Of a stretch of DNA of 64,000 nucleotides, positions 10,674 through 35,799 are shown piece by piece (positions within the stretch are counted from its first letter, which is position 1; every line of letters starts with the position of its first letter). The notes under the pieces were generated by a model. It ran no database searches, was not told the DNA's origin, and was given only the letters and a program-made list of their open reading frames with translations. Both the position numbers and the translations under genes were made by a program. The stretch lies in the NCBI RefSeq assembly GCF_053078305.1, contig NZ_CP166879.1. One strand, 5' to 3'.

Positions 10674-13600
10674 TTACGCCTCCTCTTCATGACGGGCAAA
10701 GCGGCTTTTGGTCCACAATGCCAGACGGTCAAACAGCAGATAAATCACCGGCGTGGTGAACAGCGTCAGCACCTGGCTGACAATCAGGCCGCCGACCATG
10801 CCGATACCTAACGGACGACGCAGTTCCGCGCCGACCCCGGTACTCAACATCAGCGGCAGCGCGCCAAGCAGAGCCGCCAGGGTGGTCATCAGGATCGGAC
10901 GAAAACGCAACAGACAAGCCTGGTAGATTGCATCGCGCGGCGACATGCCTTGCTCGCGCTCAGCAGCCAGCGCGAAGTCGATCATCATGATGGCGTTCTT
11001 CTTCACGATACCGATCAGCAAAATAATGCCGATAATTGCGATCACATCCAGTTCGCTACCGGCAATCAGTAACGCCAGCAGTGCGCCGACCCCTGCCGTG
11101 GGCAACGTCGAGAGAATGGTGATTGGATGAATAAAGCTCTCGTACAGAATGCCGAGCACGATATACATCGCCACCACCGCCGCGACAATCAGCCAGACAG
11201 TGCTGCCCAGCGCCGACTGGAAGGCGAGGGTGCTGCCCTGGAACTGCGTGGTGATATCCACCGGCAGATTCAGCGTCTTTTCGGTGTCCATAATCGCCTG
11301 CACCGCATCGCCCAGCGAATAGTTATCTGGCACGTTAAAGGAGATGGTCGTTACCGGGAACTGATCCAGATGGTTGATGGAGAGCGGTGCAAAACGCTGC
11401 TCAATTTTGGCAATCGAACTTAGCGGAACCACGCCACCGTCGCTGCTGGTCAGGCGAATAGTATCCAGCGCCGCAAGCCCTGGGGTATTTTCGGTGTTGT
11501 GCTCCAGCACCACGCGATACTGGTTAGCCTGAGTATAAATAGTGGAAATCAGCCGCTGACCAAATGCGTTGTACAGGGCGTTATCGACGTCCGCCATGCT
11601 GATCCCCAGACGGCTGGCGCTGTCGCGATCAACATTGACATACGCCACCAGCCCTTTGTCCTGCCAGTCGCTGGAGACATCAGAAAGCTGTGGCAGCTGC
11701 TGGAGTTTTTCCATCAACTGTGGCACCCAGGTACTGAGCGCATCCAGTGACGTGGCCTGCAAGGTAAACTGGTACTGGGTGCGGCTGACCTGAGTATCAA
11801 TAGTCAGATCCTGCGTTGGTTGCAGGAAGAGATCGATGCCCGGCACTTTATCCACCGCCGTTTGCAGACGGGCGATGACTTTTTGCACCCGATCATCACG
11901 TTCATCCAGCGGTTTGAGGTTGATCTGTAAACGCGCACTGTTCAGCGACGGGTTAGTGCCATCAACGCCCACAAATGAGGTCAGACTTTGCACTGCCGGA
12001 TCCTGCAAAATCACGTCCGCGACCTGGCGTTGCCGCTGGGCCATATTGGCAAAGGAGCTGGATTGCGGTGCCTGCAAAGTGCCCTGAATAATGCCGTTAT
12101 CCTGTACCGGGAAGAAACCTTTCGGAATGAACACCCACAATAGAACGCTAAGCAGCAGCGTGCTGAGCGCCACGCTTAAGGTCAGCCACGGATGATTCAG
12201 CACTTTCGTTAGTCCACGACCATAGGCGGCGATTATCCTGTCGAACATTCTTTCCGAGGCACGGGAGAAGCGGTTCTGTTTACGCAGCGACTCCTGGCTG
12301 AGCATCCGTGCGCACATCATCGGTGTCAGGGTTAGCGACACCACGGCTGAGATTAAAATCGCTACCGCCAGGGTAATAGCAAATTCGCGGAACAGTCGCC
12401 CGACGATATCGCCCATAAACAGCAGTGGGATCAACACCGCAATCAGCGAGAAGGTCAGCGAGATAATGGTAAAGCCGATTTCACCTGCGCCTTTGAGCGC
12501 CGCCGCCAACGGTTTTTCGCCTTTTTCGATATAGCGGGAAATATTTTCGATCACCACGATGGCGTCATCGACCACGAACCCGGTGGCGATAGTTAACGCC
12601 ATCAGCGTCAGGTTATTGATTGAAAAATCGAGAAACACCATGACCGCGAAGGTGCCGATTAACGACAGCGGCACTGCGACGCCGGGAATGATGGTCGCCG
12701 GAATATTGCGCAAAAACAGGTAGATAATCATTACTACCAGCGCGATAGCCATCATCAATTCAAACTGAGTATCGTCGACGGATGCGCGGATATTGGTGGT
12801 ACGGTCAGAAAGTACCGTCACCTTCACCGATTTCGGCAAACTCTCGGTGAGCTGTGGCAGCATCTGCCGGATGCTGTCGGCGGTGGAGATAATGTTAGCA
12901 CCGGGCTGGCGCTGAACATTCATCACAATGGCCTGTTCTTTGTTCGCCCATGCGCCGAGCCAGCTGTTTTCTGCACCTTGCTCTACAGTTGCGACATCGC
13001 CCAGACGAATCGGCGCGCCGTTCTGGTAGGCGATGATTAGCTGGCGATACTCTTCGGCGGATTGCATCTGGTCGTTAGCGGAAAGCGTGACCGCACGGGA
13101 AGGGCCGTCGAGGCTACCTTTTGCCGAGTTAACGTTAGCGCCGGTAATGGCGGTTCGCACGGTTTCGCTGGTCAGGCCGAGGGCGGCAATCGCCTGAGCG
13201 TTAAGTTTGACGCGAACAGCCGGACGCTGGCCGCCGGAAAGCGTCACCAGGCCGACGCCGGAAATCTGCGAGATTTTCTGCGCGACGCGGGTTTCCACCA
13301 TATCTTCCACTTGCGTCATCGGCATGGCTGTTGAGGTGACGGCGAGCGTCATGATCGGCGGATCTGCCGGGTTCACTTTGCTGTAAACCGGCGGGTTAGG
13401 CAGATCGCTCGGCAACAAGTTGGTCGCAGCGTTAATCGCGGCCTGCACTTCCTGCTCGGCGACATCGAGCGGTAATGTTAGCTGGAACTGTAAAGTGATA
13501 ACTGACGCACCGCCGGAACTTTGCGACGACATCTGTTTCAGGCCAGACATCTGCCCGAACTGGCGTTCGAGCGGCGCGGTAACGGCAGAGGTCATGACAT

Positions 13601-13796
13601 CCGGGCTCGCACCTGGGTAGAGCGTGACCACCTGAATGGTCGGATAGTCCACTTCCGGCAGCGCCGAAACGGGCAGGGCGCGATAACCGATAATCCCGGC
13701 GAGTAAGATCGCCACCATCAGCAGCGTGGTGGCCACAGGACGCATAATAAACAGGCGCGACGGGCCACCTGTGCTGCTCGGGGGTAACACCTGCAT
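10674..13796 (-). CDS. mdtB: RND efflux pump subunit MdtB
   Basis: 1040-aa RND transporter ORF. Confidence 0.95.
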
Positions 13797-15043
13797 CAGG
13801 AGCGAGCTCCTTTTTTCGCGTATTCGCGGCTGGTGGCTTTCTCTTCCGGAGTGGTGGCGCTCTGGGCTTCCACCACTTCCACTTTCGCCCCTTCGGTCAG
13901 GCGATCAATGCCGTCTGTCACCACGCGATCGCCCGCAGAAATACCTGCGCGGATCACCACTTTCTGACTGTCCTGAATGCCCGGCGTCACCAGATGTTTG
14001 CTGACCTTGTTTTCGCTATTCAGCACCCAGACAAAATGGCCTTCATTGCCCATTTGCAGGGCGGCTGTTGGGATCACTACGGCGTTTTGTTCGGTGTCGA
14101 CTAACATGCGCGCGTTAACAAACTGATTGGGAAACAGCGCATCATCCTGATTATTAAAGCGTGCTTTCACTTTAATCGTACCGGTAGTGGCATCGATTTG
14201 GTTATCGAGACTTAACAGCGTGCCTTCACTTAATTTCTTTGAATTGGTGCGATCCCAGGCTTCTACCACCAGCGGTTTTCCGGATTTCTGCGCCTGCACG
14301 ACGGTAGCGATATCGCTTTCCGGCAGGGTAAAGAGCAAATCGATAGGATGCGTCTGGGTGATCACCACGATCCCGGTGGTATCACCACTGGAGATTTGGT
14401 TACCAACATCAACCTGCTTGAGACCAACGCGACCATCGACTGGTGCGGTGATGCGGCTCCAGTCGAGTTGCAGCTGCGCGCTGGCGACGCTTGCTTCATC
14501 AGCCTTAATGGTGCCTTCGGTTTCACTGACCAGTGCCTGTTGGGCATCCAGCTCCTGACGGGATACGAGATTGGTTTTTGCCAGTTGCTGATAACGCGCC
14601 AGATCACGGCGGGCGTTAGCAAGCGTGGCTTTATCTTTTGCCAGTTGGCCCTGGGCTTGTGCTAATGCAACTTTGAACTGGCTGGGGTCAATTTCTGCCA
14701 GTAAATCGCCTGCTTTGACCTGCTGGCCTTCCTGGAAATGTAACGCCATCAGTTGACCATCCACGCGGCTGCGCACCGTAACAGTATTAGCGGCGGTAAT
14801 GGTGCCAAGCCCGGTGAGGTAACGCGGAACTGCCTGTTCTACGGCGGTCGCCGCCTGAACCGGGGCTAATGGGCCGGAACGCATACCACGGCGACCACCC
14901 GCAGGTGGGTGCTGCGCTTGTTTCGTCGCACCTGGTGCTGCGCTCTGGGGTTCATTGCGGCCTTGCCAGAACCAGAATGCGGCGATGGCGGCGATAACCA
15001 CCACGATTACGATTACCCAACGGGATTTATAACTGCCTTTCAT
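13796..15043 (-). CDS. mdtA: RND membrane-fusion protein MdtA (415 aa from ATG at 15043)
   Basis: ORF-track frame 13796..15190; homolog start [15 protein letters not shown]... Confidence 0.9.
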
Positions 15044-15096
15044 CGTTAAGAGTTTCTCTTCCTGAAACGTTTCGCGGAATGATACTAGTGTAGCCA

Positions 15097-15114
15097 GCCA
15101 ATAAGGGAGAAAAA
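15097..15114 (-). promoter_or_regulatory. BaeR box upstream of mdtA
   Basis: Minus-strand TTTTTCTCCCTTATTGGC vs recalled consensus TTTTTCTCCATDATTGGC, ~55 bp upstream of mdtA start. Confidence 0.5.
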
Positions 15115-15284
15115 TGGAGGAATTATGAAACACTGTCGGGAATCGTCTGAATGGCGGGCACATTTGCGAGCACGCATCCAGTAATAACACAGGAAACTAT
15201 TTTATCTACGCGTTAGCGATAGACTGCATGCATGGCGAAAGGAGGTAAGCCGACGATTTCAGCGGGATGCTGAAACGGGAAAGC

Positions 15285-15425
15285 CCCTCCCGAGGAAGGG
15301 GTCTTAAATAAGGAAAGGGTCATGATGAAGATACTCATCATCGTGGTGCTCTTAGTGATTAGCTACCCAGCATACTAAGACTACCAGGGCGGGGGAAACC
15401 CCGCTCTACCCTCACTCCTGAAAGT
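15285..15425 (-). ncRNA. Sib antisense sRNA (antitoxin) copy 1, boundaries approximate
   Basis: Inferred from Ibs/Sib architecture: antisense RNA covering ibs ORF and 5' UTR; boundaries not determinable by eye. Confidence 0.4.
15322..15378 (+). CDS. ibsB: Ibs-family type I toxin peptide (MMKILIIVVLLVISYPAY), IbsB-like
   Basis: ATGATGAAG...TACTAA with AGGAAAGGG RBS; not in ORF track (under 60 aa). Confidence 0.7.
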   Translation: MMKILIIVVLLVISYPAY

Positions 15426-15612
15426 ATGCCTTCACGTTCAGAATGTCAATCCGCAGGCTTTGCAGTCTGCGATCCTGCCAGCAAATATTCTTTGCGAGAC
15501 GTTACGCAATAATAACACAGGAAACTATTTTATCTACGCGTTAGCGATAGACTGAATTCAGGGCGAAAGGAGGTAAGCCGACGATTTCAGCGGGACGCTG
15601 AAACGGGAAAGC

Positions 15613-15753
15613 CCCTCCCGAGGAAGGGGCCTTAAATAAGGAAAGGGTCATGATGAAGTGGATCATCATCGTGGTGCGCTTAGTCATAAGCTTCCCGGCT
15701 TACTAAGACTACCAGGGCGGGGGAAACCCCGCTCTACCCTCACTCCTGAAAGT
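15613..15753 (-). ncRNA. Sib antisense sRNA copy 2, boundaries approximate
   Basis: As copy 1. Confidence 0.4.
15650..15706 (+). CDS. Ibs-family peptide variant (MMKWIIIVVRLVISFPAY) with Arg inside the hydrophobic core
   Basis: Same repeat position and RBS as copies 1 and 3; charged substitution may impair toxicity. Confidence 0.55.
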   Translation: MMKWIIIVVRLVISFPAY

Positions 15754-15941
15754 ATGCCTTCACGATAAGATTGTCAATCTGCAGGCTTTGCAGTCTGCGA
15801 TCCTGCCAGCAAATATTCTTTGCGAGTCGTTACGCAATAATCATAGAGGGAACTATTTTGTTCACGCGTTAGCGATAGACTGCATTCAGGGCGAAAGGAG
15901 GTAAGCCGACGATTTCAGCGGGACGCTGAAACGGGAAACAC

Positions 15942-16085
15942 TCTCCCGGAGAAGAGGGCTTTTAATAAGGAAAGGGTTATGATGAAGCACGTCATCATAC
16001 TGGTGATACTCTTGGTGATTAGCTTCCAGGCTTACTAAGAACACCAGGGGGAGGGGGAAACCTCTCCCTAACCCTCACTCCTGAA
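15942..16085 (-). ncRNA. Sib antisense sRNA copy 3, boundaries approximate
   Basis: As copy 1. Confidence 0.4.
15979..16038 (+). CDS. ibsA: Ibs-family type I toxin peptide (MMKHVIILVILLVISFQAY), IbsA-like
   Basis: One substitution vs recalled IbsA MMKHVIILVILLVISFPAY. Confidence 0.7.
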   Translation: MMKHVIILVILLVISFQAY

Positions 16086-16258
16086 ATTATGTCACTCCGC
16101 CCTTAGTGTCAATCGACGGCTCTCCGTTCTTGCGAGGCGAATAGCAAAATTTTCTGCGCCGCCGGGCCTAATTCTGAAAGTTTCTTCGTTTGCTCTTATT
16201 TCATTATTGCAATCGGTATGATACCGGACCTCAATAATTCTCTAAGAAAGGATTTCTT

Positions 16259-16918
16259 ATGAGCGAACAAATCACGTTTGCCACCAGCGATTTTGCCAGT
16301 AACCCGGAACCACGTTGCCCCTGCATTTTGCTGCTGGATGTTTCTGGTTCGATGAACGGTAGACCCATTAATGAACTTAACGCCGGATTGGTTACCTTTC
16401 GCGATGAGCTGCTTGCCGACCCGCTGGCCTTAAAAAGAGTGGAACTTGGTATTGTGACGTTCGGCCCGGTGCATGTGGAACAACCCTTTACCAGCGCCGC
16501 TAATTTTTTCCCGCCCATCCTGTTTGCCCAGGGCGATACACCAATGGGTGCCGCCATTACCAAAGCCCTGGATATGGTAGAGGAGCGGAAACGTGAGTAT
16601 CGTGCAAATGGTATTTCGTATTATCGCCCGTGGATTTTCCTGATCACCGATGGTGCACCAACCGATGAGTGGCAGGCTGCCGCCAACAAAGTGTTTCAGG
16701 GGGAAGAAGATAAGAAGTTTGCCTTCTTTTCCATCGGTGTTCAGGGGGCGGATATTAAGACTCTGGCACAAATCAGCGTTCGTCAGCCTTTGCCACTGCA
16801 GGGATTACAATTCCGTGAACTGTTTAGCTGGTTATCCAGTTCGCTGCGTTCGGTTTCCCGCTCCACGCCGGGAACGGAAGTTGTGCTGGAAGCGCCAAAA
16901 GGCTGGACGTCAGTTTGA
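16259..16918 (+). CDS. yegL: von Willebrand factor A (vWA) domain protein YegL
   Basis: 219-aa ORF; MIDAS-like DVSGSM motif. Confidence 0.9.
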
Positions 16919-17676
16919 GCTGGCGTCTGGTTTATGCATCCGCTGTTGGAACGTCGCACATTAGCGCTGATTTACCTTGTCAGGATGCCTGCCAGATGCA
17001 GGTTGCCTGGCTAAATGACCAGCAGCCATTACTGGTGATGTTCCTTGCTGATGGCGCAGGCAGTGTCTCGCAGGGTGGCGAAGGCGCGATGCTTGCCATC
17101 AATGAAGCGATGGCTTATGTGTCGCAAAAAGTGCAGCACGGTGAATTTGGACTCAATGATATCCTCGCCACGGATATTGTGCTGACCGTTCGTCAGCGAC
17201 TTTTTGCCGAGGCAGAAGCCAAAGCATTAGCAGTTCGCGATTTTGCCTGCACGTTTCTGGGATTGATTTCATCGGCTAACGGCACCTTGATTATGCAAAT
17301 TGGCGACGGCGGTGTAGTGGTGGATTTTGGTCGTGGTCTGGAACTGCCGCTTACGCCGATGGTGGGTGAATATGCCAATATGACGCATTTCATTAGCGAT
17401 GAAGATGCTGTTTCCAGACTGGAAACTTTCACCAGCACTGAGCGTGCGCATAAAGTTGCAGCATTTACGGATGGTATTCAGCGACTGGCGTTAAATATGC
17501 TGGATAATTCTCCGCATGTGCCTTTCTTTACCCCGTTTTTCAATGGACTGGCGGCAGCAACGCAGGAACAACTCGATTTATTACCTGAATTGTTAAAGCA
17601 GTTTTTGTCGAGCCCGGCGGTAAACGAGCGTACCGATGATGATAAAACGTTGGCACTGGCGCTGTGGTTACCATGA
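16915..17676 (+). CDS. yegK: PP2C-family Ser/Thr phosphatase YegK
   Basis: 253-aa [10 protein letters not shown]...GGEGA / IGDGG motifs; 4-bp overlap with yegL. Confidence 0.9.
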
Positions 17677-19613
17677 AACCCACTTTATATACTGCTACTG
17701 GTGAGTGCATTACGCCAGGCCGTGAACTGGGCAAAGGTGGCGAAGGCGCGGTTTATGATATCAATGAGTTTGTCGATAGCGTCGCCAAGATTTATCACAC
17801 GCCGCCACCCGCCTTAAAACAGGACAAACTTGCCTTTATGGCTGCGACAGCTGACGCGCAGTTGTTGAATTATGTCGCCTGGCCGCAGGCAACGCTTCAC
17901 GGTGGACGAGGCGGAAAAGTTATCGGTTTTATGATGCCAAAAGTTTCTGGTAAAGAACCGATTCATATGATCTATAGCCCGGCACATCGTCGCCAGAGTT
18001 ACCCTCATTGTGCGTGGGATTTTCTACTCTATGTTGCGCGCAATATTGCTTCATCTTTTGCTACGGTTCACGAGCACGGGCACGTCGTGGGTGACGTAAA
18101 CCAGAACAGCTTTATGGTAGGTCGCGACAGCAAAGTGGTGTTGATTGATAGCGACTCCTTTCAGATTAACGCTAATGGCACGTTGCATTTATGCGAAGTT
18201 GGCGTGTCGCATTTTACGCCGCCAGAGCTACAAACCTTGCCATCATTTGTCGGCTTTGAACGCACCGCGAATCACGATAATTTTGGCCTTGCGTTGCTGA
18301 TTTTTCACGTCTTGTTTGGTGGGCGGCATCCTTATTCTGGTGTGCCGCTTATCTCTGATGCGGGTAATGCGCTGGAGACGGATATTGCCCATTTCCGTTA
18401 TGCCTACGCGTCAGATAATCAGCGGCGTGGTTTAAAACCGCCGCCACGATCTATTCCGCTGTCGATGTTACCGGGCGATGTTGAAGCCATGTTTCAGCAG
18501 GCATTCACGGAAAGTGGCGTGGCAACGGGGCGTCCGACGGCTAAAGCGTGGGTAGCGGCACTGGACTCTCTACGCCAACAGTTAAAGAAATGTACCGTTT
18601 CAGCAATGCATGTTTACCCCGCTCATTTGACTGATTGCCCGTGGTGTACGCTGGATAATCAAGGCGTTATCTATTTTATTGATCTCGGCGAAGAGGTCAT
18701 TACCACCAGTGGTGATTTTGTGCTGGCGAAAGTCTGGGCGATGGTGATGGCGTCAGTAGCACCGCCAGCATTGCAATTGCCATTACCCGATCATTTCCAA
18801 CCGACTGGCAGGCCGCTTCCTTTAGGCCTGTTACGGCGCGAATACATCATTCTGATTGAGATCGCACTGTCAGCGTTATCGCTGTTGCTTTGCGGCCTTC
18901 AGGCAGAACCGCGTTATATTATTTTGGTTCCTGTGCTGGCGGCTATCTGGATTATTGGCAGTCTGACAAGCAAAGCTTATAAAGCAGAAATCCAGCAACG
19001 CCGTGAGGCATTTAATCGCGCGAAAATGGACTATGACCATTTAGTCAGCCAGATCCAACAGTTGGGCGGGCTGGAAGGTTTTATCGCCAAACGGACGATG
19101 CTCGAAAAAATGAAGGACGAAATGCTCGGGTTACCGGAAGAAGAAAAACGTGCTCTGGCAGCACTTCACGACACCGCAAGGGAACGGCAGAAGCAGAAGT
19201 TTCTGGAGGGATTTTTTATTGATGTTGCCTCTATTCCCGGCGTTGGCCCTGCGCGTAAAGCGGCGTTACGGTCCTTTGGTATTGAAACAGCAGCGGATGT
19301 TACCCGTCGTGGGGTTAAGCAAGTGAAAGGGTTTGGTGATCATCTGACCCAGGCAGTTATCGACTGGAAAGCAAGTTGCGAACGCCGTTTTGTGTTCAGG
19401 CCGAATGAAGCGGTAACGCCAGCAGACAGACAAGCGGTAATGGCGAAAATGACCGCCAAACGACATCGGCTGGAATCGACGTTGACTGTCGGCGCGACAG
19501 AGTTGCAGCGATTTCGCCTTCATGCTCCAGCACGGACCATGCCGTTGATGGAACCTTTACGTCAGGCGGCAGAAAAACTGGCTCAGGCGCAAGCAGATTT
19601 AAGCCGCTGCTGA
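17664..19613 (+). CDS. yegI: atypical Ser/Thr protein kinase YegI
   Basis: 649-aa ORF; kinase-like N-terminal domain (HGHVVGDVNQNS, IDSDSF), C-terminal TM and coiled-coil region; 13-bp overlap with yegK. Confidence 0.9.
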   Translation: MVTMKPTLYTATGECITPGRELGKGGEGAVYDINEFVDSVAKIYHTPPPALKQDKLAFMAATADAQLLNYVAWPQATLHGGRGGKVIGFMMPKVSGKEPIHMIYSPAHRRQSYPHCAWDFLLYVARNIASSFATVHEHGHVVGDVNQNSFMVGRDSKVVLIDSDSFQINANGTLHLCEVGVSHFTPPELQTLPSFVGFERTANHDNFGLALLIFHVLFGGRHPYSGVPLISDAGNALETDIAHFRYAYASDNQRRGLKPPPRSIPLSMLPGDVEAMFQQAFTESGVATGRPTAKAWVAALDSLRQQLKKCTVSAMHVYPAHLTDCPWCTLDNQGVIYFIDLGEEVITTSGDFVLAKVWAMVMASVAPPALQLPLPDHFQPTGRPLPLGLLRREYIILIEIALSALSLLLCGLQAEPRYIILVPVLAAIWIIGSLTSKAYKAEIQQRREAFNRAKMDYDHLVSQIQQLGGLEGFIAKRTMLEKMKDEMLGLPEEEKRALAALHDTARERQKQKFLEGFFIDVASIPGVGPARKAALRSFGIETAADVTRRGVKQVKGFGDHLTQAVIDWKASCERRFVFRPNEAVTPADRQAVMAKMTAKRHRLESTLTVGATELQRFRLHAPARTMPLMEPLRQAAEKLAQAQADLSRC

Positions 19614-19625
19614 GCCATTTTTCAA

Positions 19626-20978
19626 TTAACGAAACACCACTTCCGCCCAGCGTGCCAGCCCGGCGGTGACGGAGCCAAAGTCATCGCCGCCTGCAATCGG
19701 AATGCCCGGCAACTGTTCTGCCAGCGCTTTTTTAATCAGCGGCGAACGGGCGCTACCGCCGGTCAGGTAGATGACATCCGGTTTTTCCTGGGCGTTATCC
19801 AGGGCCAGTTGCACCTGTTCCAGAATCCGCGCCAGTGGCTGGCTGAGGGCGCTTTCCAGCCCTTGCTGGCTAATCAGCGTAGCCAGTTCATCGCTGATAA
19901 ACGGCAGTGAGGCGCGGATTTCCGCTACGCTTGAAAGAGCAATTTTGCACTCTTCTGCGCTACGCACCAGGCGATAGCTTAAACGCTGACGCCAGACTTT
20001 CTGTAGCAGGGCCACTTTTTCCGGTTCGCGGGCATCGCGTACCAGATCGTTAAGCAGACGACCGTTGGCACTACTGTAGAAATCACTCTGCGCAGGAACG
20101 TCGTTGATGGCAACCGCATTCCACCACGGCAGAATCGGCAGGGCGATGCCTTTTTCGGTTTCGCCGCCCATGCCCAGTAACGGCATCAGGTTTTTAAACG
20201 CCAGCGCGATATCCAGATCGTTACCGCCAATACGGCAACCACTGTGACCCAGCAGGCTGGCTTCACGATCGAGACGCGAACGCCACTGCGGCCCCATCAG
20301 CAGCAATGAACAGTCAGTCGTACCACCGCCGATATCCACCACCAGCACCCGTTTTTCTTCCTGCAAAGTCGCTTCGTAATCCAGCCCTGCCGCTACCGGC
20401 TCGTACTGGAATACCACATCCTTAAACCCGGCACGCTTCGCCGCGCGTTCCAGAATCCCTTGCGCCTGGGCGTTTGCTTCATCGCCGCCCAGCCCCTGGA
20501 AGTTGATCGGGCGACCAATCACCGCCTGAGTAATCGCTTCTGGCAGCTGCGCCTGCGCCTGCTGGCGAATGTGCAACATCATTGCGCAGACCAGATCCTC
20601 AAACAGCGCTACCTGCTGCGGTTTTAAGCCGCTGGCACCGAGGAACGATTTTGGTGATTTCACAAACCACACTTCTTCTGGATCATCAATGTACTGTGCC
20701 AGTGAGGAAAGACCGAACTGCACGCTTTTCGCCGTAACATCGATATCTTCTTCGCGGTTATAACGAATCGCCCGACGCAACAGCGCCTGCGTTTCATCGT
20801 CGTCTGCCGGAACATCATGATGGCGGTACAGCCATTCGCTTACCGCTTCACGCGTTGGCGCGCAAAGCATTGAAGGCAGCAGCGTGCTGTCGTTTTCCAT
20901 TTTTAGCAAGTGCGGTTTACCGTCACGCATGACCGCCACTGAACAGTTTGCTGTACCGTAATCAAAACCAATAAACAC
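19626..20978 (-). CDS. yegD: Hsp70-like actin-fold ATPase YegD (450 aa from GTG)
   Basis: ORF-track frame 19626..21041; ...FIGFDYGTANCSVAVM... and DIGGGTTD motifs. Confidence 0.9.
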   Translation of the reverse strand: MFIGFDYGTANCSVAVMRDGKPHLLKMENDSTLLPSMLCAPTREAVSEWLYRHHDVPADDDETQALLRRAIRYNREEDIDVTAKSVQFGLSSLAQYIDDPEEVWFVKSPKSFLGASGLKPQQVALFEDLVCAMMLHIRQQAQAQLPEAITQAVIGRPINFQGLGGDEANAQAQGILERAAKRAGFKDVVFQYEPVAAGLDYEATLQEEKRVLVVDIGGGTTDCSLLLMGPQWRSRLDREASLLGHSGCRIGGNDLDIALAFKNLMPLLGMGGETEKGIALPILPWWNAVAINDVPAQSDFYSSANGRLLNDLVRDAREPEKVALLQKVWRQRLSYRLVRSAEECKIALSSVAEIRASLPFISDELATLISQQGLESALSQPLARILEQVQLALDNAQEKPDVIYLTGGSARSPLIKKALAEQLPGIPIAGGDDFGSVTAGLARWAEVVFR

Positions 20979-21049
20979 GAAATAATCCCCATGCCGGTGA
21001 AGAAGGGGCGTGACTTTAGCGAAATGTTGCCGTCGCGACAACCGGAATA

Positions 21050-21063
21050 TGAAAGCAAAGCGC
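21050..21063 (+). promoter_or_regulatory. Ada box (AAAGCGCA with upstream A-tract) in alkA promoter
   Basis: GAAAGCAAAGCGCA about 50 bp upstream of alkA ATG. Confidence 0.5.
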
Positions 21064-21111
21064 AGCGTCTGAATAACGTTTATGCTGAAAGCGGATAAAC
21101 AAGGAGATGCG

Positions 21112-21960
21112 ATGTATACCCTGAACTGGCAGCCGCCGTATGACTGGTCGTGGATGTTGGGATTTCTCGCCGCCCGTGCAGTGAGTGGTGTGGAAACGGT
21201 CGCGGACAGTTATTATGCCCGTAGTCTGGCGGTGGGCGAATATCGCGGCGTGGTGACTGCTATTCCGGATATAGCCCGCCATACTCTGCACATAAATTTA
21301 AGTGCAGATTTAGAACCCGTTGCCGCTGAGTGTCTGGCGAAAATGAGCCGCCTGCTTGATCTGCAATGTAACCCGCAGATTGTTAACGGTGCGTTGGGCA
21401 AGTTAGGCGCGGCGCGGCCCGGATTGCGTTTACCCGGCAGTGTTGATGCTTTTGAGCAGGGCGTGCGGGCGATTTTAGGCCAACTGGTGAGCGTGGCGAT
21501 GGCGGCAAAATTGACCGCCAGAGTGGCACAGCTTTATGGCGAACGGCTGGATGATTTTCCGGAGTATATCTGCTTCCCCACGCCTCAGCGGCTGGCAGCA
21601 GCCGACCCGCAGGCATTAAAAGCGTTAGGCATGCCGTTGAAACGGGCAGAGGCACTGATTCATCTGGCAAATGCGGCGCTGGAGGGCAGCTTACCAATGA
21701 CAATTCCGGGCGATGTGGAGCAGGCGATGAAAACGCTGCAAACTTTTCCGGGTATCGGGCGCTGGACGGCGAATTATTTCGCCTTGCGCGGCTGGCAGGC
21801 GAAAGATGTTTTCCTGCCGGATGATTATCTGATTAAACAGCGATTTCCGGGAATGACACCGGCACAAATCCGCCGTTATGCCGAGCGCTGGAAGCCCTGG
21901 CGTTCTTATGCGCTGTTGCATATCTGGTATACGGAAGGCTGGCAGCCAGACGAAGCATGA
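21112..21960 (+). CDS. alkA: 3-methyladenine DNA glycosylase II AlkA
   Basis: 282 aa from MYTLNWQPPYDWSWMLGFLAARAVS...; ORF-track frame starts at 21082. Confidence 0.9.
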   Translation: MYTLNWQPPYDWSWMLGFLAARAVSGVETVADSYYARSLAVGEYRGVVTAIPDIARHTLHINLSADLEPVAAECLAKMSRLLDLQCNPQIVNGALGKLGAARPGLRLPGSVDAFEQGVRAILGQLVSVAMAAKLTARVAQLYGERLDDFPEYICFPTPQRLAAADPQALKALGMPLKRAEALIHLANAALEGSLPMTIPGDVEQAMKTLQTFPGIGRWTANYFALRGWQAKDVFLPDDYLIKQRFPGMTPAQIRRYAERWKPWRSYALLHIWYTEGWQPDEA

Positions 21961-22010
21961 CGTTGGTCGCCGGAAGCGGTGCGAGCGCCTTGCGGAATGA
22001 GCGATTTGTA

Positions 22011-22043
22011 GGCCTGATAAGACGCGTTAGCGTCGCATCAGGC
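22011..22043. repeat. REP element (GCCTGATAAGACGCG...CGTCGCATCAGGC)
   Basis: Characteristic palindromic REP sequence read directly. Confidence 0.6.
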
Positions 22044-22060
22044 AATGGGCAAACGCTCCC

Positions 22061-25000
22061 TCAGTTAATCGCGAAATAACTGCTATTCACCAGCAAATCC
22101 AGCGGTTGGGCATCGGCAATCACATCACCATAAATCAGATCGACGCCGATGCCAGAAAGCGTATCCATCACTAAGGGTAAAACGACTGGCCCGGCGATGG
22201 TTTTCATCCCGAGTCGCTGAGCGTGCCCCTGAATAATCGTAATCAGCATCTCATCCATCAAATTACCCTGCACGTTGGCGCATAACTCACCATCAAGTAG
22301 CAGATAATCTGCCATATTCGCTTTCAGCGAGTTGAAGATTTGCAGATCGCGGCCCACCTGGCTGAGCACTATCCGACATCCCGCCAGCCGCAGTTTTTGC
22401 ACGCTTTCTGCGTGATCTAAAATCGCTTCAGCCGGAATAATCAGATGTAATAACCGTGGTGGTAGAGGGCTATTTTCCAGCTGCTCAAGCAGATCATTCA
22501 CCAGCGTGGCGCTACTCAAACCGGCAACGGAAAGGGGGAGGGCGATGCTTATGCCTTTACTGGCAACTGCTTTTGCGGCCTGCTGGAAAAATTCGTGGAA
22601 TACCCTGCGGTCAAGAGCATGGCTAAGCGCCGGATCGCTGAAGCTACGACGAAATGTTTGTTCATCAATAATCTCGCCTTCGCAACTCCAGAGCTTAAGT
22701 GAAATCAGCCACAAATTACGCGCTTCCGGGATCCGTGGCGAAGCGACACCGTGGGCGAGCATCATCAACTGATTCTCTTTAATCATCCGCCACTGTTCAT
22801 CAAGCGATATCGCCGCCCGTTCGCTATGTGCGGCAGCTTGCTGCGGTTCGTAAACCGTCACCCGGCCCCGGCCACCATTTTTGGAGGCATAACAGGCGAT
22901 ATCAGCCTGCGACATCACTTCTGCCGCCTGATGATTGTTGTCATCGATCAAGGTAATCCCGGCGCTGGCACCTACCCGATGTACCCGGCCTTCCCATATA
23001 AAGTGATAGTCATTCACAGCACTGATAATACGTGTAGCGATAAAACGAGCGCTTTCAACATTGCAGTCTGGCAGCAGCAGACCAAATTCATCACCGCCGA
23101 GCCGCGCCAGCACGTCACTGGAGCGCAGCATACTCAGCATCAACGACGCCAGTTCGCGCAGCAAAGCGTCGCCCGCCGCATGCCCGGCGCTGTCATTCAC
23201 CGCTTTAAAGCGATCAAGATCGATAAACACCAGTGCATGTCGCTGATGCGTACTGTTTACCGTTTGCAGCAGGATACGCAGTTGTTTCTCAAAACTGGCG
23301 CGGTTGGCGAGATGCGTCAGTGCATCATGGGAGGCGCTGTAGCTCAGCTGGCGCAGCATTTTGCGTGATTCGGTAACGTCCTGAATCACCAGAACCGAAC
23401 CAATATTGCTGCCGTCCAGAGTACTTAACGGCGTAATACTGTAATGCACGTCGTAACTGCCGCCGCTCCGACAGTGCAACACCACATCTTGTTCGATCGC
23501 GGAACGTGAGGTGTCGGCACTGTAAATATTCTCCATTAATGGCCCGTTGTCGCCAAAAGTAATATGCAACACCGTCAGGAGCGGAACACCTAATGCTTCT
23601 TCCTGCGTCCAGCCGCTCATCTTCTCCGCCACTGGATTCATAAAGGTAATTTTCATCGCCATATCAATACAGACCACGGCTTCGCCGATGGAGTCCAGCG
23701 TAATGTGCAGGCGCTCTTTTTCCTGAAACAATGCCTCGTTAAGCTGTTTCACTTCGGTCATATCCATATTGATGCCGAGGAGACGTTCGACTTCGCCTTC
23801 TTTATTCAGTACCCGGTTGGCGAGGGCGCGGATATGGCGGATGCCATCTTTCACGGCAATGCGAAATTCCAGCTTAAAGGGCGAGCGCGATTGCAATGAA
23901 TCGCGAATCACTTTTTCGGCGTGTTGGCGATCTTCCGGCAGCACGCACTCGTACCACACTTGCCAGTTCGGTTTGATATGCGGAGGAATTTCATACAGCT
24001 CGAACATCCGCTTATCCCAGCTAAAAATATTCGGCTTCAGCTCCCACTCCCAGATGCCAATCCCGCCCGCTTCGTTAGCCAGCGTGATGCGTTCCATCAG
24101 TTGCTGATTCACCTGTTCGGTGCGTTTTAGCTCGTTAATGTCTTCAATCTGAGCGATAAAATAGAGCGGCGTGCCATCCGTGTGGCGCACCAGTGAGACG
24201 GCAAGCAACGCCCAGACAACATCGCCATTGCGGTTGTAGTAACGTTTTTCCATTGAATAGGTGTTTATTTCACCGCTTATCAGCTTTTCAACCTGTTGGA
24301 GATCTTTATTGAGATCCTCCGGCCAGGTCAGTTGCTGGAAGGTGAGTCCGCGCAGCTCTTCCTGACTGTAACCGAGAAACTGGCAGAGTGCTTTGTTGGA
24401 TTGCAGCCATTGTCCCTCGGTGCCCACTAACGCCATGCCGATAGCGGAATATTCCATCGCGTTTCGAAAGCGGGTTTCGCTTTCGGAAATGTGTTTGCGT
24501 TCCGCACGAAAGGCATACATCACCATCGTCATGATGTTGGCGGGCAGCAGGATCAGCAAAAACGGTAGCCACGGCATATGGCTCATCAGGTACGTACGCG
24601 GCGTAGCAAGCAGGGAGGGATCCGCGGCCATCATCAGCGACACCATCATCACCGTGGTAAGGAAGATCAAAAAGGCTTCCATTCGTGGCAGGCGCACGGC
24701 GCTCCACATCAACAGCACAATAATGAAAGTAAAAGGCCACGGCAGATACAGCATCGAAAGCCAGCTTAACGTCAGTGTGATGGCTAACGTGAGCAGCGAC
24801 TCAAAAAGCAACCGTGGGTTGCGATGGCGCAGCAGATAGTGTGGTTTAAATAACAATCCCAGCGGCACCAGTGCCAGAGCGCCGATGGATTCTGACAGTA
24901 CCCATATCAAAAATGCCCTGAGAGGATCGTCTCCGGGCGTCAGCAGGACAACCAGAACACCCCCCAACAGAGGTGGAACAATGGCGCTGCCGAGTGCCAG

Positions 25001-30429: not shown

Positions 30430-31167
30430 TCATTCACTCTCTTTCAAACCAGTTTTAACTGTTTGTGGTTTTGGGTAAGGCTGGACTTTGAATAGCTTTG
30501 TGTTGAGGCGTTTTCTGGCCCTCTTGTTCAGAAACCGGATGTAACGAAACTGTCGGAACTTATGCACACTGGCTCTGTCGATATTAGCCCTCAGATGTTC
30601 ACCTCGTTGTCCGCCTCGTTTAATGGCATTCCTGCAAATCTCGTGATACCACTCGCCATCAAGTTCATAGAATGTTGATTCATGGCTGCCTACATAATCA
30701 AAATTGCTTGCCTGATACACGACACCAAGACAGCCACAACGCTCATCTGCAAACGACTGAACCCACTGTACCTGCGGATAAAGATGCCTGATTAGCTTGA
30801 GCGCGTAACTGATTGCCCTTGATTCGGAGTTTCTCGGCATACAGTCATGCATCCATAGCCGGTTAAGCTCCATATATTCTCGGTTCTGCGTACCCGTTAC
30901 GACGCGTGCACCACTGTTTGGGTTAAGGGCGTAACCCCATTGCATTACGCCAACAAGTTCCCGTTCTGAAAATATACCCAGATGAAGGTAGGAATTATTT
31001 ACGAAACGGTGGCTGTAATGTTTATTGACGATAACCAGTCTGGCCAGCCAGCAACTTATTGTCTCAACCCGCAACTCACGGGAGCCATAACCAACGATAT
31101 TGTCGTTATAGCGAATAAGTTCAGGCGTGCTGATGATTCGGGATGTGACTTGCTTTCTGTTCCCCAC
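30430..31167 (-). CDS. mom: Mom-like DNA modification protein (call by position and operon context; GTG start)
   Basis: 245-aa ORF last before prophage end, overlapping upstream com-like gene as in Mu com-mom; sequence identity to Mu Mom not verified. Confidence 0.55.
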
Positions 31168-32457: not shown

Positions 32458-34515
32458 TTATGCCGCAGGGGTATTAACCTCAAGGACAACGCTCTCAAAA
32501 GACACGCCATAAGTTGCCCCTTTGGTGACATCTGTCAGTGTCAGCGTATCTTTGGCAGGGGAAAGTGCATCTTTCACCATCTGGAATGCCTGGCCCGGAG
32601 TGCCATCCAGCACAGGCGTTACCTGGGCACTTCCCGCAGTAAACTTCAGGACAAGTGTATGCCACTGGTTATTGTAGGCTCCAAATGATCCCAGTTTCGT
32701 ATTCCCCCCTGTTTTATGGTGCATCAGATTTAACTGGCCGCCTGTTGTCTGGAGATAATACGCCATCAGGAACGGTGTGCCTGTACCACTCATGGTTACA
32801 CCTTCCGGGACCGTATCGGTGTGGAGGTAAATACCCAGAGCAAACTGGCCTTCTTTTACTTCACCTGACAGACGGAATTTACAGGTCAACTGACCACCAT
32901 GCTTCAGAAGTTCACCGGCTGCATCAGTTCCATGGGTAAGCGTCCAGGTTTTTCCGCTTTGTTTGGATACGGTCAACGCTTTACCTTCGTCCGTCAGCTG
33001 GATTGTACCATCTGTAATTTTCCATCCCTGAGCCGGGGCTTCCCCTGCTGATGCTTTAAGTGAAAGCAGCGTACGGAGTGACGGGGATGTCGGCTGGGGG
33101 GACTCACTGCTTCCTGGCTGACTACCTGTCGGAGCTTCCGGTTTTCCACCCGGCGCGGGCTGAGGCAGGGCTTCACCATCAGGGGCCACACCGGCAATAA
33201 ATGCAGAGGTCAGACCTGCATATTTAAGAATTGCTGATGCAAAACGATCTGAGACCAGAAAACGGCGCGCCCAGGAGCTAAAATGGGTTGCCCTGGATGC
33301 TGTTGTCCAGTTGCCATCTCCCCGTGATTCCGCACCATAATACCCGGCAGAAGCGATATCCGGGTCGTGCTCCGGCAGGTTGGTCGCGGTTTTATTACCG
33401 AACTCATCGTGCATCAGTGGAACAAAGTGAATGTTCTCGGAAGCCCGGTTTTTATATCCGCTATAAATGGTTTCATATGCCGCCGGGTTCTTCTCTTTCC
33501 AGTCATAGGTTGTGTCACCACATAACCACGGCACACTGTCTGATGAACCACCAATACACTGACCGGAGAAAGCACCAAGATCCGCACGGAATTTTTTCAC
33601 CATCGCAGTAAACTGGGCACCATGCTGGGCCGGGGTCGCTTTAAGGTCTCCTTCCCCCTGAATCCATACGACAGATAACAGCACATTCTTTGGATTCGCC
33701 TCAAGTGCCGCTTTCGTTCGACTGACAAGATCCTGATACAGTGGGGTATCCACTCCCCAGCGTAGTGACGCCTCGGCTGCACCACTTGCCGGATCGAATG
33801 AGCCAACTGCGCCGGTTGTAAAAGCAGAGCCGCCACGGGCACAGGGAACCAGTAAAATCCCGGCATCAGCAGGAATCACCGGTAATACTTTTTTCGCAAT
33901 ATGAAGTCCCTGACCCACACAACCATACTGCCCTTTTTTCAGGTCTGCTTTTGGATGGTTCAGCAGACTCATATTCTGAACATCATGAAGGCAGTGATCT
34001 GCTGGAATGATTTCATTGTATTTGCAGGGAATACCCCCGGGGGTTTGTGTATTCCTGCGTGCCAGCTGCATAATACGTGGATCAGGACGATCATAAGAAT
34101 CCGGCAGGGGCAACCCTTCACCATAAGATGAAGCATTGGACTGACCGGCTATAACAATCACGTAATACCAGGAAGGGGAGCTGGAAGCCGTTTCATTTCC
34201 TGCCGGACGGGTATGTGTGTCAGCATTATCCCAGTCTGACGGTTCAGCAGTACCGGCAACATCAGCACTTAACGGAATGACAGCACCAATACCCGCTCCG
34301 GTAATTTCCACGTTCGGATCACCGGATACTGGCCTTACCCACAGGCAATCCCGTGTATTAAAACTGATGAGACAGTCAGCAAATGTCATTCCTCCTTTCG
34401 TTTCAGCCGGAGGAAAGGGAGCCTCAAGAAATGCCGCTGTACCACCGGAAACTTTAACGGTAAAGTTTCCGGGCATTGATGATAGTTGAACCCATTTGGA
34501 CGTCATAATATTCAT
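32458..34515 (-). CDS. SGNH/SASA-family carbohydrate esterase, NanS-p-like (putative sialate O-acetylesterase) with C-terminal lectin-like domain
   Basis: 685-aa ORF; VIVIAGQSNASSYGEG (GQSN block I), CARGGSAF, IQGEGD, DGNW...H blocks; Pro/Ser linker then beta-rich C-terminus. Confidence 0.55.
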   Translation of the reverse strand: MNIMTSKWVQLSSMPGNFTVKVSGGTAAFLEAPFPPAETKGGMTFADCLISFNTRDCLWVRPVSGDPNVEITGAGIGAVIPLSADVAGTAEPSDWDNADTHTRPAGNETASSSPSWYYVIVIAGQSNASSYGEGLPLPDSYDRPDPRIMQLARRNTQTPGGIPCKYNEIIPADHCLHDVQNMSLLNHPKADLKKGQYGCVGQGLHIAKKVLPVIPADAGILLVPCARGGSAFTTGAVGSFDPASGAAEASLRWGVDTPLYQDLVSRTKAALEANPKNVLLSVVWIQGEGDLKATPAQHGAQFTAMVKKFRADLGAFSGQCIGGSSDSVPWLCGDTTYDWKEKNPAAYETIYSGYKNRASENIHFVPLMHDEFGNKTATNLPEHDPDIASAGYYGAESRGDGNWTTASRATHFSSWARRFLVSDRFASAILKYAGLTSAFIAGVAPDGEALPQPAPGGKPEAPTGSQPGSSESPQPTSPSLRTLLSLKASAGEAPAQGWKITDGTIQLTDEGKALTVSKQSGKTWTLTHGTDAAGELLKHGGQLTCKFRLSGEVKEGQFALGIYLHTDTVPEGVTMSGTGTPFLMAYYLQTTGGQLNLMHHKTGGNTKLGSFGAYNNQWHTLVLKFTAGSAQVTPVLDGTPGQAFQMVKDALSPAKDTLTLTDVTKGATYGVSFESVVLEVNTPAA

Positions 34516-34605
34516 CCTGTTCCTGAATAAACAGAATTATCATATCCACAGACCGATAAACGCCATTTTGCGTTAATTCAGTAAAGGCCCAACAAAGGGA
34601 GCGTC

Positions 34606-34910
34606 TTATTTTTCCGAAATGCTCGCAGGATAATAACGATAAAGGGTTGAAAGGCCGATATCAAAAATAAGTGCCACCTGTCTTCGGCTGACACCCCCGG
34701 CCAGTAAACGCCCGACCTGCTCGTATTGTTCCTGCGTGAGACGACGGGGTCTGCCGCCGGTTCGTCCCCTTTCACGGGCAGCTGCAAGACCAGCCCGTGT
34801 CCGTTCGACAATCAATTCACGCTCCATTTCTGCCAGCGCACCCATTATGTGAAAAAAGAAGCGCCCCATGGGGGTTGACGTATCAATGTTGTCAGTAAGA
34901 CTACGAAAAT
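34606..34910 (-). pseudogene. gin: gin/pin-family DNA invertase, C-terminal fragment (HTH domain)
   Basis: Encodes FRSLTDNIDTSTPMGRFFFHIMGALAEMERELIVERT...GGRPRRLT...; matches Gin from about residue 90 onward. Confidence 0.8.
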
Positions 34911-34996
34911 GTAAGCGTAAACTGACCGCCGTATGTAGCCATTAAGCCAGTATTGGTAACGTAGGTGCCCACCTTTTCAACTAGTGGACACCTGTT

Positions 34997-35422
34997 ATGG
35001 AACAGAAAATATTATCCTCAGAACCCCGCAGATCATTTTCAAATGAGTTTAAACTTCAAATGGTTAAACTGGCTTCACAACCAGGAGCCTCTGTTGCCCG
35101 TATTGCCCGGGAACACGATATCAATGATAACCTCCTGTTCAAATGGCTCAGGCTCTGGCAGAACGAAGGGCGTATATCGCGGCGTCTTCCGGTAACAACC
35201 TCTTCTGGCGCTGGCGTTGAATTATTACCTGTTGAGATAACGCCTGATGAGCAGAAAGAGCCTGTGGCGGCTCTTACTCCGCTTTTATCCACTCCTTCAC
35301 AAAGCACAGTCAGTGCCAGTTCCTGTAAAGTTGAGTTCCGCCACGGTAACATGACGCTGGAAAATCCTTCACCAGAGCTGCTCACGGTGTTGATCCGTGA
35401 ACTGACCGGGAGGGGACGATGA
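34997..35422 (+). CDS. tnpA: IS66 family accessory protein TnpA (orf1)
   Basis: 141-aa ORF with HTH-like N-terminus. Confidence 0.85.
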   Translation: MEQKILSSEPRRSFSNEFKLQMVKLASQPGASVARIAREHDINDNLLFKWLRLWQNEGRISRRLPVTTSSGAGVELLPVEITPDEQKEPVAALTPLLSTPSQSTVSASSCKVEFRHGNMTLENPSPELLTVLIRELTGRGR

Positions 35423-35769
35423 TCTCGCTCCCATCAGGCACTCGAATCTGGCTGGTTGCCGGCGTTACTGATATGCGTAAATCCTTCAACGGTCTGGGAG
35501 AACAGGTACAACATGTGCTGGATGAGAACCCCTTCTCCGGTCACCTGTTTATCTTTCGCGGCCGACGGGGTGACACGATTAAAATTCTGTGGGCTGATGC
35601 TGATGGTCTGTGCCTGTTCACCAAACGTCTGGAGGAAGGCCAGTTTATCTGGCCTGCGGTGCGTGACGGTAAGGTATCCATTACCCGCTCGCAGCTGGCA
35701 ATGCTCCTCGATAAACTGGACTGGCGTCAGCCCAAAACATCCCGCCTTAATGCACTGACAATGTTGTAA
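35419..35769 (+). CDS. tnpB: IS66 family protein TnpB (orf2)
   Basis: 116-aa ORF MISLPSGTRIWLVAGVTDMRKSFNGL...; 4-bp overlap with orf1. Confidence 0.9.
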   Translation: MISLPSGTRIWLVAGVTDMRKSFNGLGEQVQHVLDENPFSGHLFIFRGRRGDTIKILWADADGLCLFTKRLEEGQFIWPAVRDGKVSITRSQLAMLLDKLDWRQPKTSRLNALTML

Positions 35770-35799
35770 AAATGTCATGGCCGGATTATAAAAACGGTC

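Follow-up and report, generated by a model that had tools for sequence, protein, structure and literature searches.

Ibs/Sib units between mdtA and yegL

We analyzed a 64,000-nucleotide (nt) stretch of DNA from contig NZ_CP166879.1 (NCBI RefSeq assembly GCF_053078305.1), referred to here as the window, which contains a tandem array of Ibs/Sib type I toxin-antitoxin units between mdtA and yegL (Table 1). An earlier note on this DNA had described three ~328-bp tandem units and given the sequence of the middle peptide; the units, their coordinates and that peptide were correct according to Tandem Repeats Finder (TRF), an ungapped repeat finder, open reading frames (ORFs), Pfam and Rfam. TRF detected a single array at 15182-16091 with a period of 328, 2.8 copies, 89% matches and a score of 1407. 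The ungapped repeat finder recovered three copies with start-to-start spacings of 328 and 328-332 nt, the 143-nt leaders of units 2 and 3 being 91% and 83% identical, respectively, to that of unit 1.

All three ORFs, of 18-19 amino acids, exceeded the Pfam cut-off of 27 bits for Ibs_toxin (PF13956) when two N-terminal residues were added to each peptide to reach the 20-residue minimum of the search, and an NCBIfam search of the peptides gave sub-threshold matches only, in a collection that has no Ibs model. Antisense to the ORFs, on the minus strand, were three matches to the Rfam family SIB_RNA (RF00113), each of full length (model positions 1-147) and far beyond chance, with E-values of 1e-29 to 1e-31 and a gathering score of 56. 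The genomic position is that of the sibA/sibB locus, as seen from the ORFs and the annotation of homologous loci, and the neighboring genes mdtB, mdtA, yegL, pphC and yegI are all intact. Because three PF13956 ORFs lie antisense to three full-length RF00113 matches between mdtA and yegL, the region is, by every feature that can be tested in sequence, a member of the Ibs/Sib type I toxin-antitoxin family at its canonical locus. No further Sib copy was found by the Rfam scan of the 64-kb window, in which the small RNA CyaR was the sole other Rfam match.

Table 1. Coordinates of the Ibs/Sib array, its components and its flanking genes in the window.
Feature	Position	Strand	Basis
Tandem array, three ~328-bp Ibs/Sib units, mdtA-yegL intergenic region	15182-16165	.	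TRF, repeat families, unit alignment
Unit 1	about 15183-15510		Alignment with K-12, B, O157 and A16 units
Unit 2	about 15511-15838		Alignment with K-12, B, O157 and A16 units
Unit 3	about 15839-16165		Alignment with K-12, B, O157 and A16 units
ibs unit 1 ORF, MMKILIIVVLLVISYPAY, identical to WP_012767742.1	15322-15378	+	PF13956, 34.1 bits
ibs unit 2 ORF, MMKWIIIVVRLVISFPAY, WP_012767741.1 with L10R	15650-15706	+	PF13956, 36.4 bits
ibsA ORF (unit 3), MMKHVIILVILLVISFQAY, identical to K-12 IbsA, WP_010723109.1	15979-16038	+	PF13956, 50.4 bits
Sib RNA, unit 1	15278-15413	-	RF00113, 140.1 bits at 15449-15307; ends by alignment to MG1655 sibB
Sib RNA, unit 2	15606-15741	-	RF00113, 136.3 bits at 15777-15635; ends by alignment to MG1655 sibB
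SibA RNA (unit 3)	15933-16076	-	RF00113, 146.5 bits at 16112-15964; ends by alignment to MG1655 sibA
Sib unit 1 promoter: TTGACA (15449-15444), 17-nt spacer, TACTTT (15426-15421), 7 nt to mapped 5' end	15421-15449	-	Sequence reading and MG1655 sibB 5' end
Sib unit 2 promoter: TTGACA (15777-15772), 17-nt spacer, TACTTT (15754-15749)	15749-15777	-	Sequence reading, alignment
SibA promoter: TTGACA-17-TAATTT	16112-16084	-	Alignment
Unit-1-like patch of five substitutions in the unit 2 leader	15514-15535	+	5 of 14 window-A16 differences cluster here; match unit 1 and K-12 unit
T-to-G substitution, CTC to CGC, Leu10Arg in unit 2	15678	+	Alignment
mdtA, left flank of the array	13796-15043	-	ORF; annotation of homologous loci
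yegL (von Willebrand factor A-domain protein), right flank of the array	16259-16918	+	ORF; annotation of homologous loci

The ends of the Sib RNAs were mapped by alignment to the annotated sibA (144 nt), sibB (136 nt) and sibC (141 nt) of Escherichia coli K-12 MG1655. In each unit the -10 box lies 7 nt from the mapped 5' end, and the promoter region of unit 2 has the same sequence as that of K-12 sibB, whose RNA the literature describes as expressed. A simple consensus promoter/terminator scan called no Sib promoter, because the -10 box (TACTTT or TAATTT) matches fewer than four of the six consensus positions. A GC-rich terminator hairpin is predicted at the 3' end of the Sib RNA in all three units. 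As judged by alignment, the units share promoter, 5' end and terminator hairpin with the mapped RNAs of K-12.

The best-conserved part of the units is the ~140-nt leader 5' of each ORF, which contains GGAGG. Across all unit types a stretch of this leader (15213-15278, 15541-15606 and 15869-15935) is better conserved than the ORFs; it reads GCGAAAGGAGGTAAGCCGACGA and continues into a perfect 8-bp hairpin, TTTCAGCG-GGA-CGCTGAAA. The conserved leader presumably represents the ibs promoter together with a structure in the 5' untranslated region. Unit 3 has two private-looking substitutions, a C-to-A at 15940, which falls at the base of the SibA terminator hairpin and also in the ibsA leader, and a synonymous TTA-to-TTG at 16014 in ibsA codon 12.

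The K-12 members of the family provide the mechanistic frame. Overproduced K-12 Ibs peptides depolarize the inner membrane, and the Sib RNA, which overlaps the whole ibs ORF and its ribosome-binding site, represses the cognate mRNA through two independent target recognition domains (TRDs). In SibC, TRD1 (+46 to +68) pairs within the ORF and TRD2 (+99 to +115) pairs at the translation-initiation region, and either of them alone is enough for repression; RNase III-dependent decay follows Sib-ibs pairing. Peptide toxicity and repression by the cognate Sib have been shown for K-12 members only. We infer that the units of the window work by the mechanism established for K-12 SibC/IbsC: each would encode a small membrane-depolarizing Ibs peptide on one strand and, on the other, a Sib RNA of ~136-144 nt spanning the entire ORF and ribosome-binding site, and base-pairing of the Sib RNA would block translation and lead to decay of the ibs mRNA.

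The comparison with ibsC/sibC (Fozo 2008; Han 2010; Mok 2010) extends over the whole length of the Sib RNA. Both belong to PF13956 and RF00113, and the P1, TRD1, TRD2 and terminator segments of SibC are conserved in the window Sibs, for which the same mechanism would be expected. The ibsC/sibC pair is a single unit at the fau-serA locus with a 19-residue peptide that has no charged core residue, and it has been dissected experimentally, whereas the units of the window are known from their sequence. Between window units TRD1 differs at 5-6 of 23 positions (6/23 for Sib units 1 and 2), and the hairpin loop that overlies codons 4-5 also varies from unit to unit. In TRD2, units 1 and 2 show 0/17 differences, as against 2/17 in comparison with unit 3. 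Since TRD2 is identical in units 1 and 2 and either TRD suffices in SibC, Sib units 1 and 2 may be able to repress each other's toxins.

Unit types and copy number among E. coli strains

Between yegL and mdtA, MG1655 has two units, sibA/ibsA and sibB/ibsB (QUAD1a/b, ryeC/ryeD), as the earlier note had stated. The K-12 and window arrays share locus, flanks and unit architecture, namely an Ibs ORF over whose full length an antisense Sib RNA extends, this RNA having a TTGACA-17-TA(C/A)TTT promoter and ending in a hairpin. Unit 3 of the window is ibsA/sibA; its peptide is identical to that of K-12, and its SibA differs from K-12 SibA at 0/17 TRD2 and 1/23 TRD1 positions. The K-12 IbsB ORF (MMKLLIIVVLLVISFPAY), in contrast, was not found in the window, and K-12 lacks the window's units 1 (ILII...YPAY type) and 2 (WIII...FPAY type). 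These two are distinct, conserved IbsB-like paralogue types, named here X and W, with unit 3 as type A. They are 91-94% identical to each other, while either is about 71-83% identical to unit 3. The middle unit, being of the distinct W type in an array without the K-12 ibsB-type ORF, is not an extra copy of ibsB.

The same three units (WP_012767742.1, WP_012767741.1 and WP_010723109.1), in the same order and at the same spacing, were found in O157:H7, A16 and many other E. coli, and A16, B (ATCC 11303) and O157:H7 all carry WP_012767742.1 and WP_012767741.1. Unit 1 of A16 is 100% identical to unit 1 of the window, and the two arrays show 14 differences in 1,501 nt overall. What sets the window apart from the A16-type array is the Leu10Arg change (G at 15678) and a five-base, unit-1-like patch in the leader of unit 2. 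The one unit that the window has in excess of K-12 at this locus could be explained by a triplication of the K-12 ibsB/ibsA pair, recent and confined to one lineage, but we give this explanation next to no probability. The units have diverged from one another by 6-30%, and orthologues at 98-100% identity to each of them occur in A16, B and O157:H7; thousands of genomes contain the array, and the ORF that such a triplication would have copied, of the K-12 ibsB type, is missing from the window. Recent triplication is thus refuted by the alignments.

The frequency of the three-unit state was estimated from complete E. coli genomes. A 1.5-kb query spanning the array gave a colinear, single-piece match, annotated as two Ibs family toxins plus ibsA, throughout the band of at least 95% identity, which comprises 2,359 of 5,422 records, O157:H7 included. 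In an evenly spaced sample of 40 records, three units were counted in 19, two in 16, four in three and one in a single record. A 77-mer around the standard middle-unit ORF was identical in 1,943 records and differed by at most three bases in 111 more. Taken together, these counts put the share of the 5,426 complete E. coli genomes in which the Prokaryotic Genome Annotation Pipeline (PGAP) annotates the three-unit array at roughly 40-45%, a figure whose precision is that of identity bands and a 40-row sample, not of a per-genome count. Judged from these matches, the three-unit state is a common allelic form and not a new expansion. The description of the array as triplicated is therefore apt in so far as there is one unit more than in K-12, but not as a sign of special expansion, since the same array is shared by so large a fraction of genomes. 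Locus, family, mechanism and strain-to-strain variation in copy number are already documented (according to the literature, K-12 has five Ibs genes, O157 Sakai seven and NRG857c four), and the units are already annotated by PGAP.

Arrays of one, two, three, four and five units occur, and mosaic units are among them. The states found, besides those of K-12 and the window, were A only; X-B'; X-W without A; W-B'-A'; W-W-A; X-W-B'-A; and X-X-B-W-A. The five-unit X-X-B-W-A array was seen in GCA_009766285.1 and the W-W-A array in the metagenome assembly ERZ28603447, and the X-W array without ibsA lies at the locus of another genome. In B strains the four-unit array reads X-W-B-A, of which K-12 keeps B-A only, and the K-12 ibsB unit joins a unit-1-type (X) leader to a B-type ORF. 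A B-A array with an X-type leader is the expected product of unequal crossing-over. In the window, five of the 14 differences from A16 cluster at 15514-15535, within the unit 2 leader; at these five positions the window agrees with unit 1 and the K-12 unit, which indicates a gene-conversion or mosaic tract. The ~330-bp units would thus recombine with one another, by gene conversion and unequal crossing-over, so that their number and order are reshuffled; the arrays of two units in K-12, three in O157:H7 and the window, four in B strains and one or five elsewhere would be different outcomes of this reshuffling. The claim that such arrays are hotspots of recombinational copy-number change is borne out by the one- to five-unit arrays, the mosaic units and the leader patch, and these shuffled arrays are an illustration of both processes at work in a toxin-antitoxin repeat.

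Two other groups of type I systems, ldrABC/rdlABC and zorO-orzO/zorP-orzP, likewise combine small hydrophobic toxins with RNA antitoxins, are repeated within one intergenic region and vary in copy number among strains. Their sequences are unrelated to Ibs/Sib, and the Orz antitoxins are divergently encoded and do not fully overlap their targets.

The Leu10Arg allele of the middle toxin

The middle ORF of the window differs from WP_012767741.1 (MMKWIIIVVLLVISFPAY) at one base, 15678. The codon there is CTC in all other genomes examined and CGC in the window and in a lineage that includes E. coli strain 48, so that the arginine which the earlier note had placed inside the membrane-spanning core is a Leu10Arg (L10R) substitution. 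None of the 5,426 complete E. coli genomes contained the window's own 77-mer, the best matches being 98.7% identical with one mismatch, or any 28-mer spanning the G at 15678. The Arg allele was absent from the about 2,050 complete genomes that carry the middle unit. An exact 30-mer of the Arg allele was found zero times in GTDB representative genomes and JGI metagenomes, negatives that carry little weight because a control pattern with N at the single-nucleotide polymorphism (SNP) found only 0 and 3 W-type units, respectively, all of them Leu.

Carriers of the Arg allele were located through contigs encoding the exact YegI protein of the window. GCA_000736735.1 (JPQG01000003.1) is 100% identical to window positions 11296-23113, GCA_018683735.1 shows one difference from the window in 8,941 nt, at 16014, and both encode MMKWIIIVVRLVISFPAY. 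These were the two Arg assemblies among the matches listed; 13 further similar contigs were reported besides. According to its genome announcement, JPQG00000000 is E. coli strain 48, a Shiga toxin-producing E. coli (STEC) from roe deer positive for subAB2-3. Leu is found in all genomes with exactly the same MdtA or YegL protein but only about 98% DNA identity. Because the array flanks are at most 98.2-98.5% identical in the closest complete E. coli genomes, the strain-48 lineage is, on these alignments, divergent and under-represented among complete genomes. As far as its distribution indicates, the Arg allele is a recent mutation fixed in one shallow lineage, strain 48 and its close relatives, in which a single T-to-G change would have turned Leu10 of the middle toxin into Arg. 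K-12 and its relatives therefore do not uniformly have three copies with identical peptides, K-12 having two units and the Arg being private to a lineage.

A sequencing or assembly error would be a natural suspicion for a single base within a tandem repeat of ~330 bp, since assemblies of such regions are commonly collapsed or mis-polished, all the more as the G is absent from 5,426 complete genomes. We consider an error very improbable. The same G is present in two separate assemblies that differ elsewhere in the array, at 16014, which essentially refutes this explanation; the 13 further similar contigs and the intact neighboring genes also speak against it.

Read on the minus strand, 15678 is a C; it occupies position +64 of Sib unit 2, which in the alignment corresponds to SibC +68, where TRD1 ends. 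Cognate Sib-ibs pairing is unchanged because the antitoxin is encoded on the opposite strand; toward non-cognate partners the SNP adds one mismatch. The predicted fold of Sib unit 2 has an energy of -58.8 kcal/mol with the C as against -61.7 kcal/mol, with one closing pair of the TRD1 hairpin lost and the architecture kept, and the Rfam score of Sib unit 2 essentially equals that of unit 1.

In the peptide, R10 cuts the longest apolar run from 10 to 6 residues and lowers the grand average of hydropathy from 2.12 to 1.66. The summed apparent insertion free energy rises from +1.9 to +5.05, by about +3.1 kcal/mol, on scale values that are reportedly those of Hessa et al. 2005. Among all other IbsB-like alleles sampled (about 20 loci), the core IIVVLLVIS is invariant and natural variation falls at positions 2, 4-5 and 15. 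According to reviews of Mok et al. (2010), the hydrophobic center of IbsC determines toxicity and residues 6-19 are required. Because the Arg breaks an otherwise invariant hydrophobic core, we think it probable, if well short of certain, that the R10 toxin is weakened or inactive. In mechanistic terms, splitting the 10-residue apolar run would make membrane insertion costlier by about 3 kcal/mol and so weaken or inactivate the toxin. R10 would then represent not a new function but a loss of recent date within a redundant family, probably neutral or of slight advantage.

Several points weigh against this attenuation. According to reviews, IbsC tolerates much sequence change, frameshift variants being still toxic, and a peptide of about 15 residues is long enough for toxicity if at least 10 of them are hydrophobic. 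The R10 peptide retains 13 apolar residues and may thus remain toxic, and R10 shares a helical face with K3, S14 and A17, which would make snorkelling or packing into oligomers easier. R10 corresponds to IbsC L11, for which the effect of a charge is taken here from reviews of Mok 2010. The tolerance of IbsC, the apolar residues retained and the helical face also speak for a reading in which the Arg allele has no real effect and is a neutral polymorphism in the tolerant sequence of a still functional Ibs toxin, and this reading also draws on the 36.4 bits that the R10 peptide still scores against PF13956 and on the persistence of the allele in at least two isolates with the unit otherwise intact. 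We regard it as possible but unlikely. It sits poorly with a core that does not vary among the other IbsB-like alleles sampled or in the about 2,050 complete genomes carrying this unit, with the insertion cost of a central Arg and the halving of the uninterrupted apolar run, and with the role that the hydrophobic center has in IbsC toxicity according to reviews.

Could the Arg instead be adaptive and mark the start of a functional split? It might create a charged, pore-lining oligomer with altered activity, or leave a toxin-dead unit that is kept for its Sib RNA. The first version finds some support in the importance of charged residues in other type I toxins, such as ZorO, and in the position of R10 on one helical face with K3 and S14. 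For the second, the SNP at the SibC +68 equivalent raises the TRD1 mismatches between units 1 and 2 to 6/23, an altered edge that would sharpen discrimination, while the identical TRD2 (0/17), with either TRD sufficient for SibC repression, could make the unit 2 RNA a back-up antitoxin for the neighboring toxin. We hold both versions improbable. The allele is a single substitution in a very shallow clade, whose two carriers differ by 1 base in 8.9 kb, it was not seen in the other lineages searched, and there is no sign of selection; moreover, both strands change together, leaving the cognate pair unaffected. If it were true, the adaptive reading would make the allele a natural intermediate in the domestication or neofunctionalization of a type I toxin-antitoxin unit. 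The earlier suggestion of a specialized middle copy found no positive support.

Its counterpart, a decayed middle copy, fared no better. The ORF, Shine-Dalgarno region, Sib promoter and terminator of unit 2 are intact, its family scores are intact, and it departs from its A16 counterpart only at the SNP and in the leader patch, so that decay of this unit is, on the sequence, at most incipient. We accordingly rejected a pseudogene: start codon, frame, ribosome-binding site, promoter and antitoxin are kept, with one missense SNP and a leader patch copied from unit 1. A genuinely decayed unit was found in strain A23, where an IS3 insertion truncates an ibs unit. What stands of the earlier proposal for the middle copy is a lineage-private SNP in a common allele.

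We therefore favor, with a probability of about 0.85, an account in which the window carries a widespread three-unit ibs/sib allele that has been shuffled by recombination and has acquired, in one lineage, an L10R change likely to attenuate the toxin. The R10 peptide is already a called and Pfam-tagged gene product in public assemblies, and no mention of it was found in the literature. L10R provides a natural single-residue test of the Ibs hydrophobic center, with the wild-type control present in thousands of strains, and the Arg allele may serve as a marker for the strain-48 lineage of wild-ruminant STEC.

Surrounding genes and the rest of the window

The CyaR (RyeE) small RNA lies on the minus strand at 1113-1198 (RF00112, 100.7 bits), in its usual place beside yegQ. 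To the right of the array, pphC (16915-17676) is directly followed by yegI (17673-19613), the two overlapping by 4 nt, in the window as well as in A16, B and O157:H7, whereas in K-12 yegJ is located between the two on the opposite strand.

Core-genome synteny (yegL-pphC-yegI-yegD-...-asmA-yegH) ends at about 30.3 kb and is followed by a Mu-like prophage (~30430-64000), with genes for Mom (30430-31167), Mu Gp48, baseplate J, tail sheath, a DUF935 protein and a DNA circularization protein. Only 226 of the 5,426 complete genomes, among them O157:H7 and O91:H21, contain the 41-64 kb part of the window, with an identity of 97-98%. The tail region of the prophage (32458-37413) contains a 685-residue ORF with a SASA (sialate O-acetylesterase-like) domain and DUF6645, which is probably a tail fiber or spike. 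It is followed by an element of the IS66 family, in which a helix-turn-helix transposase ORF occupies 34997-35422 and a DDE transposase lies at 35800-37413.

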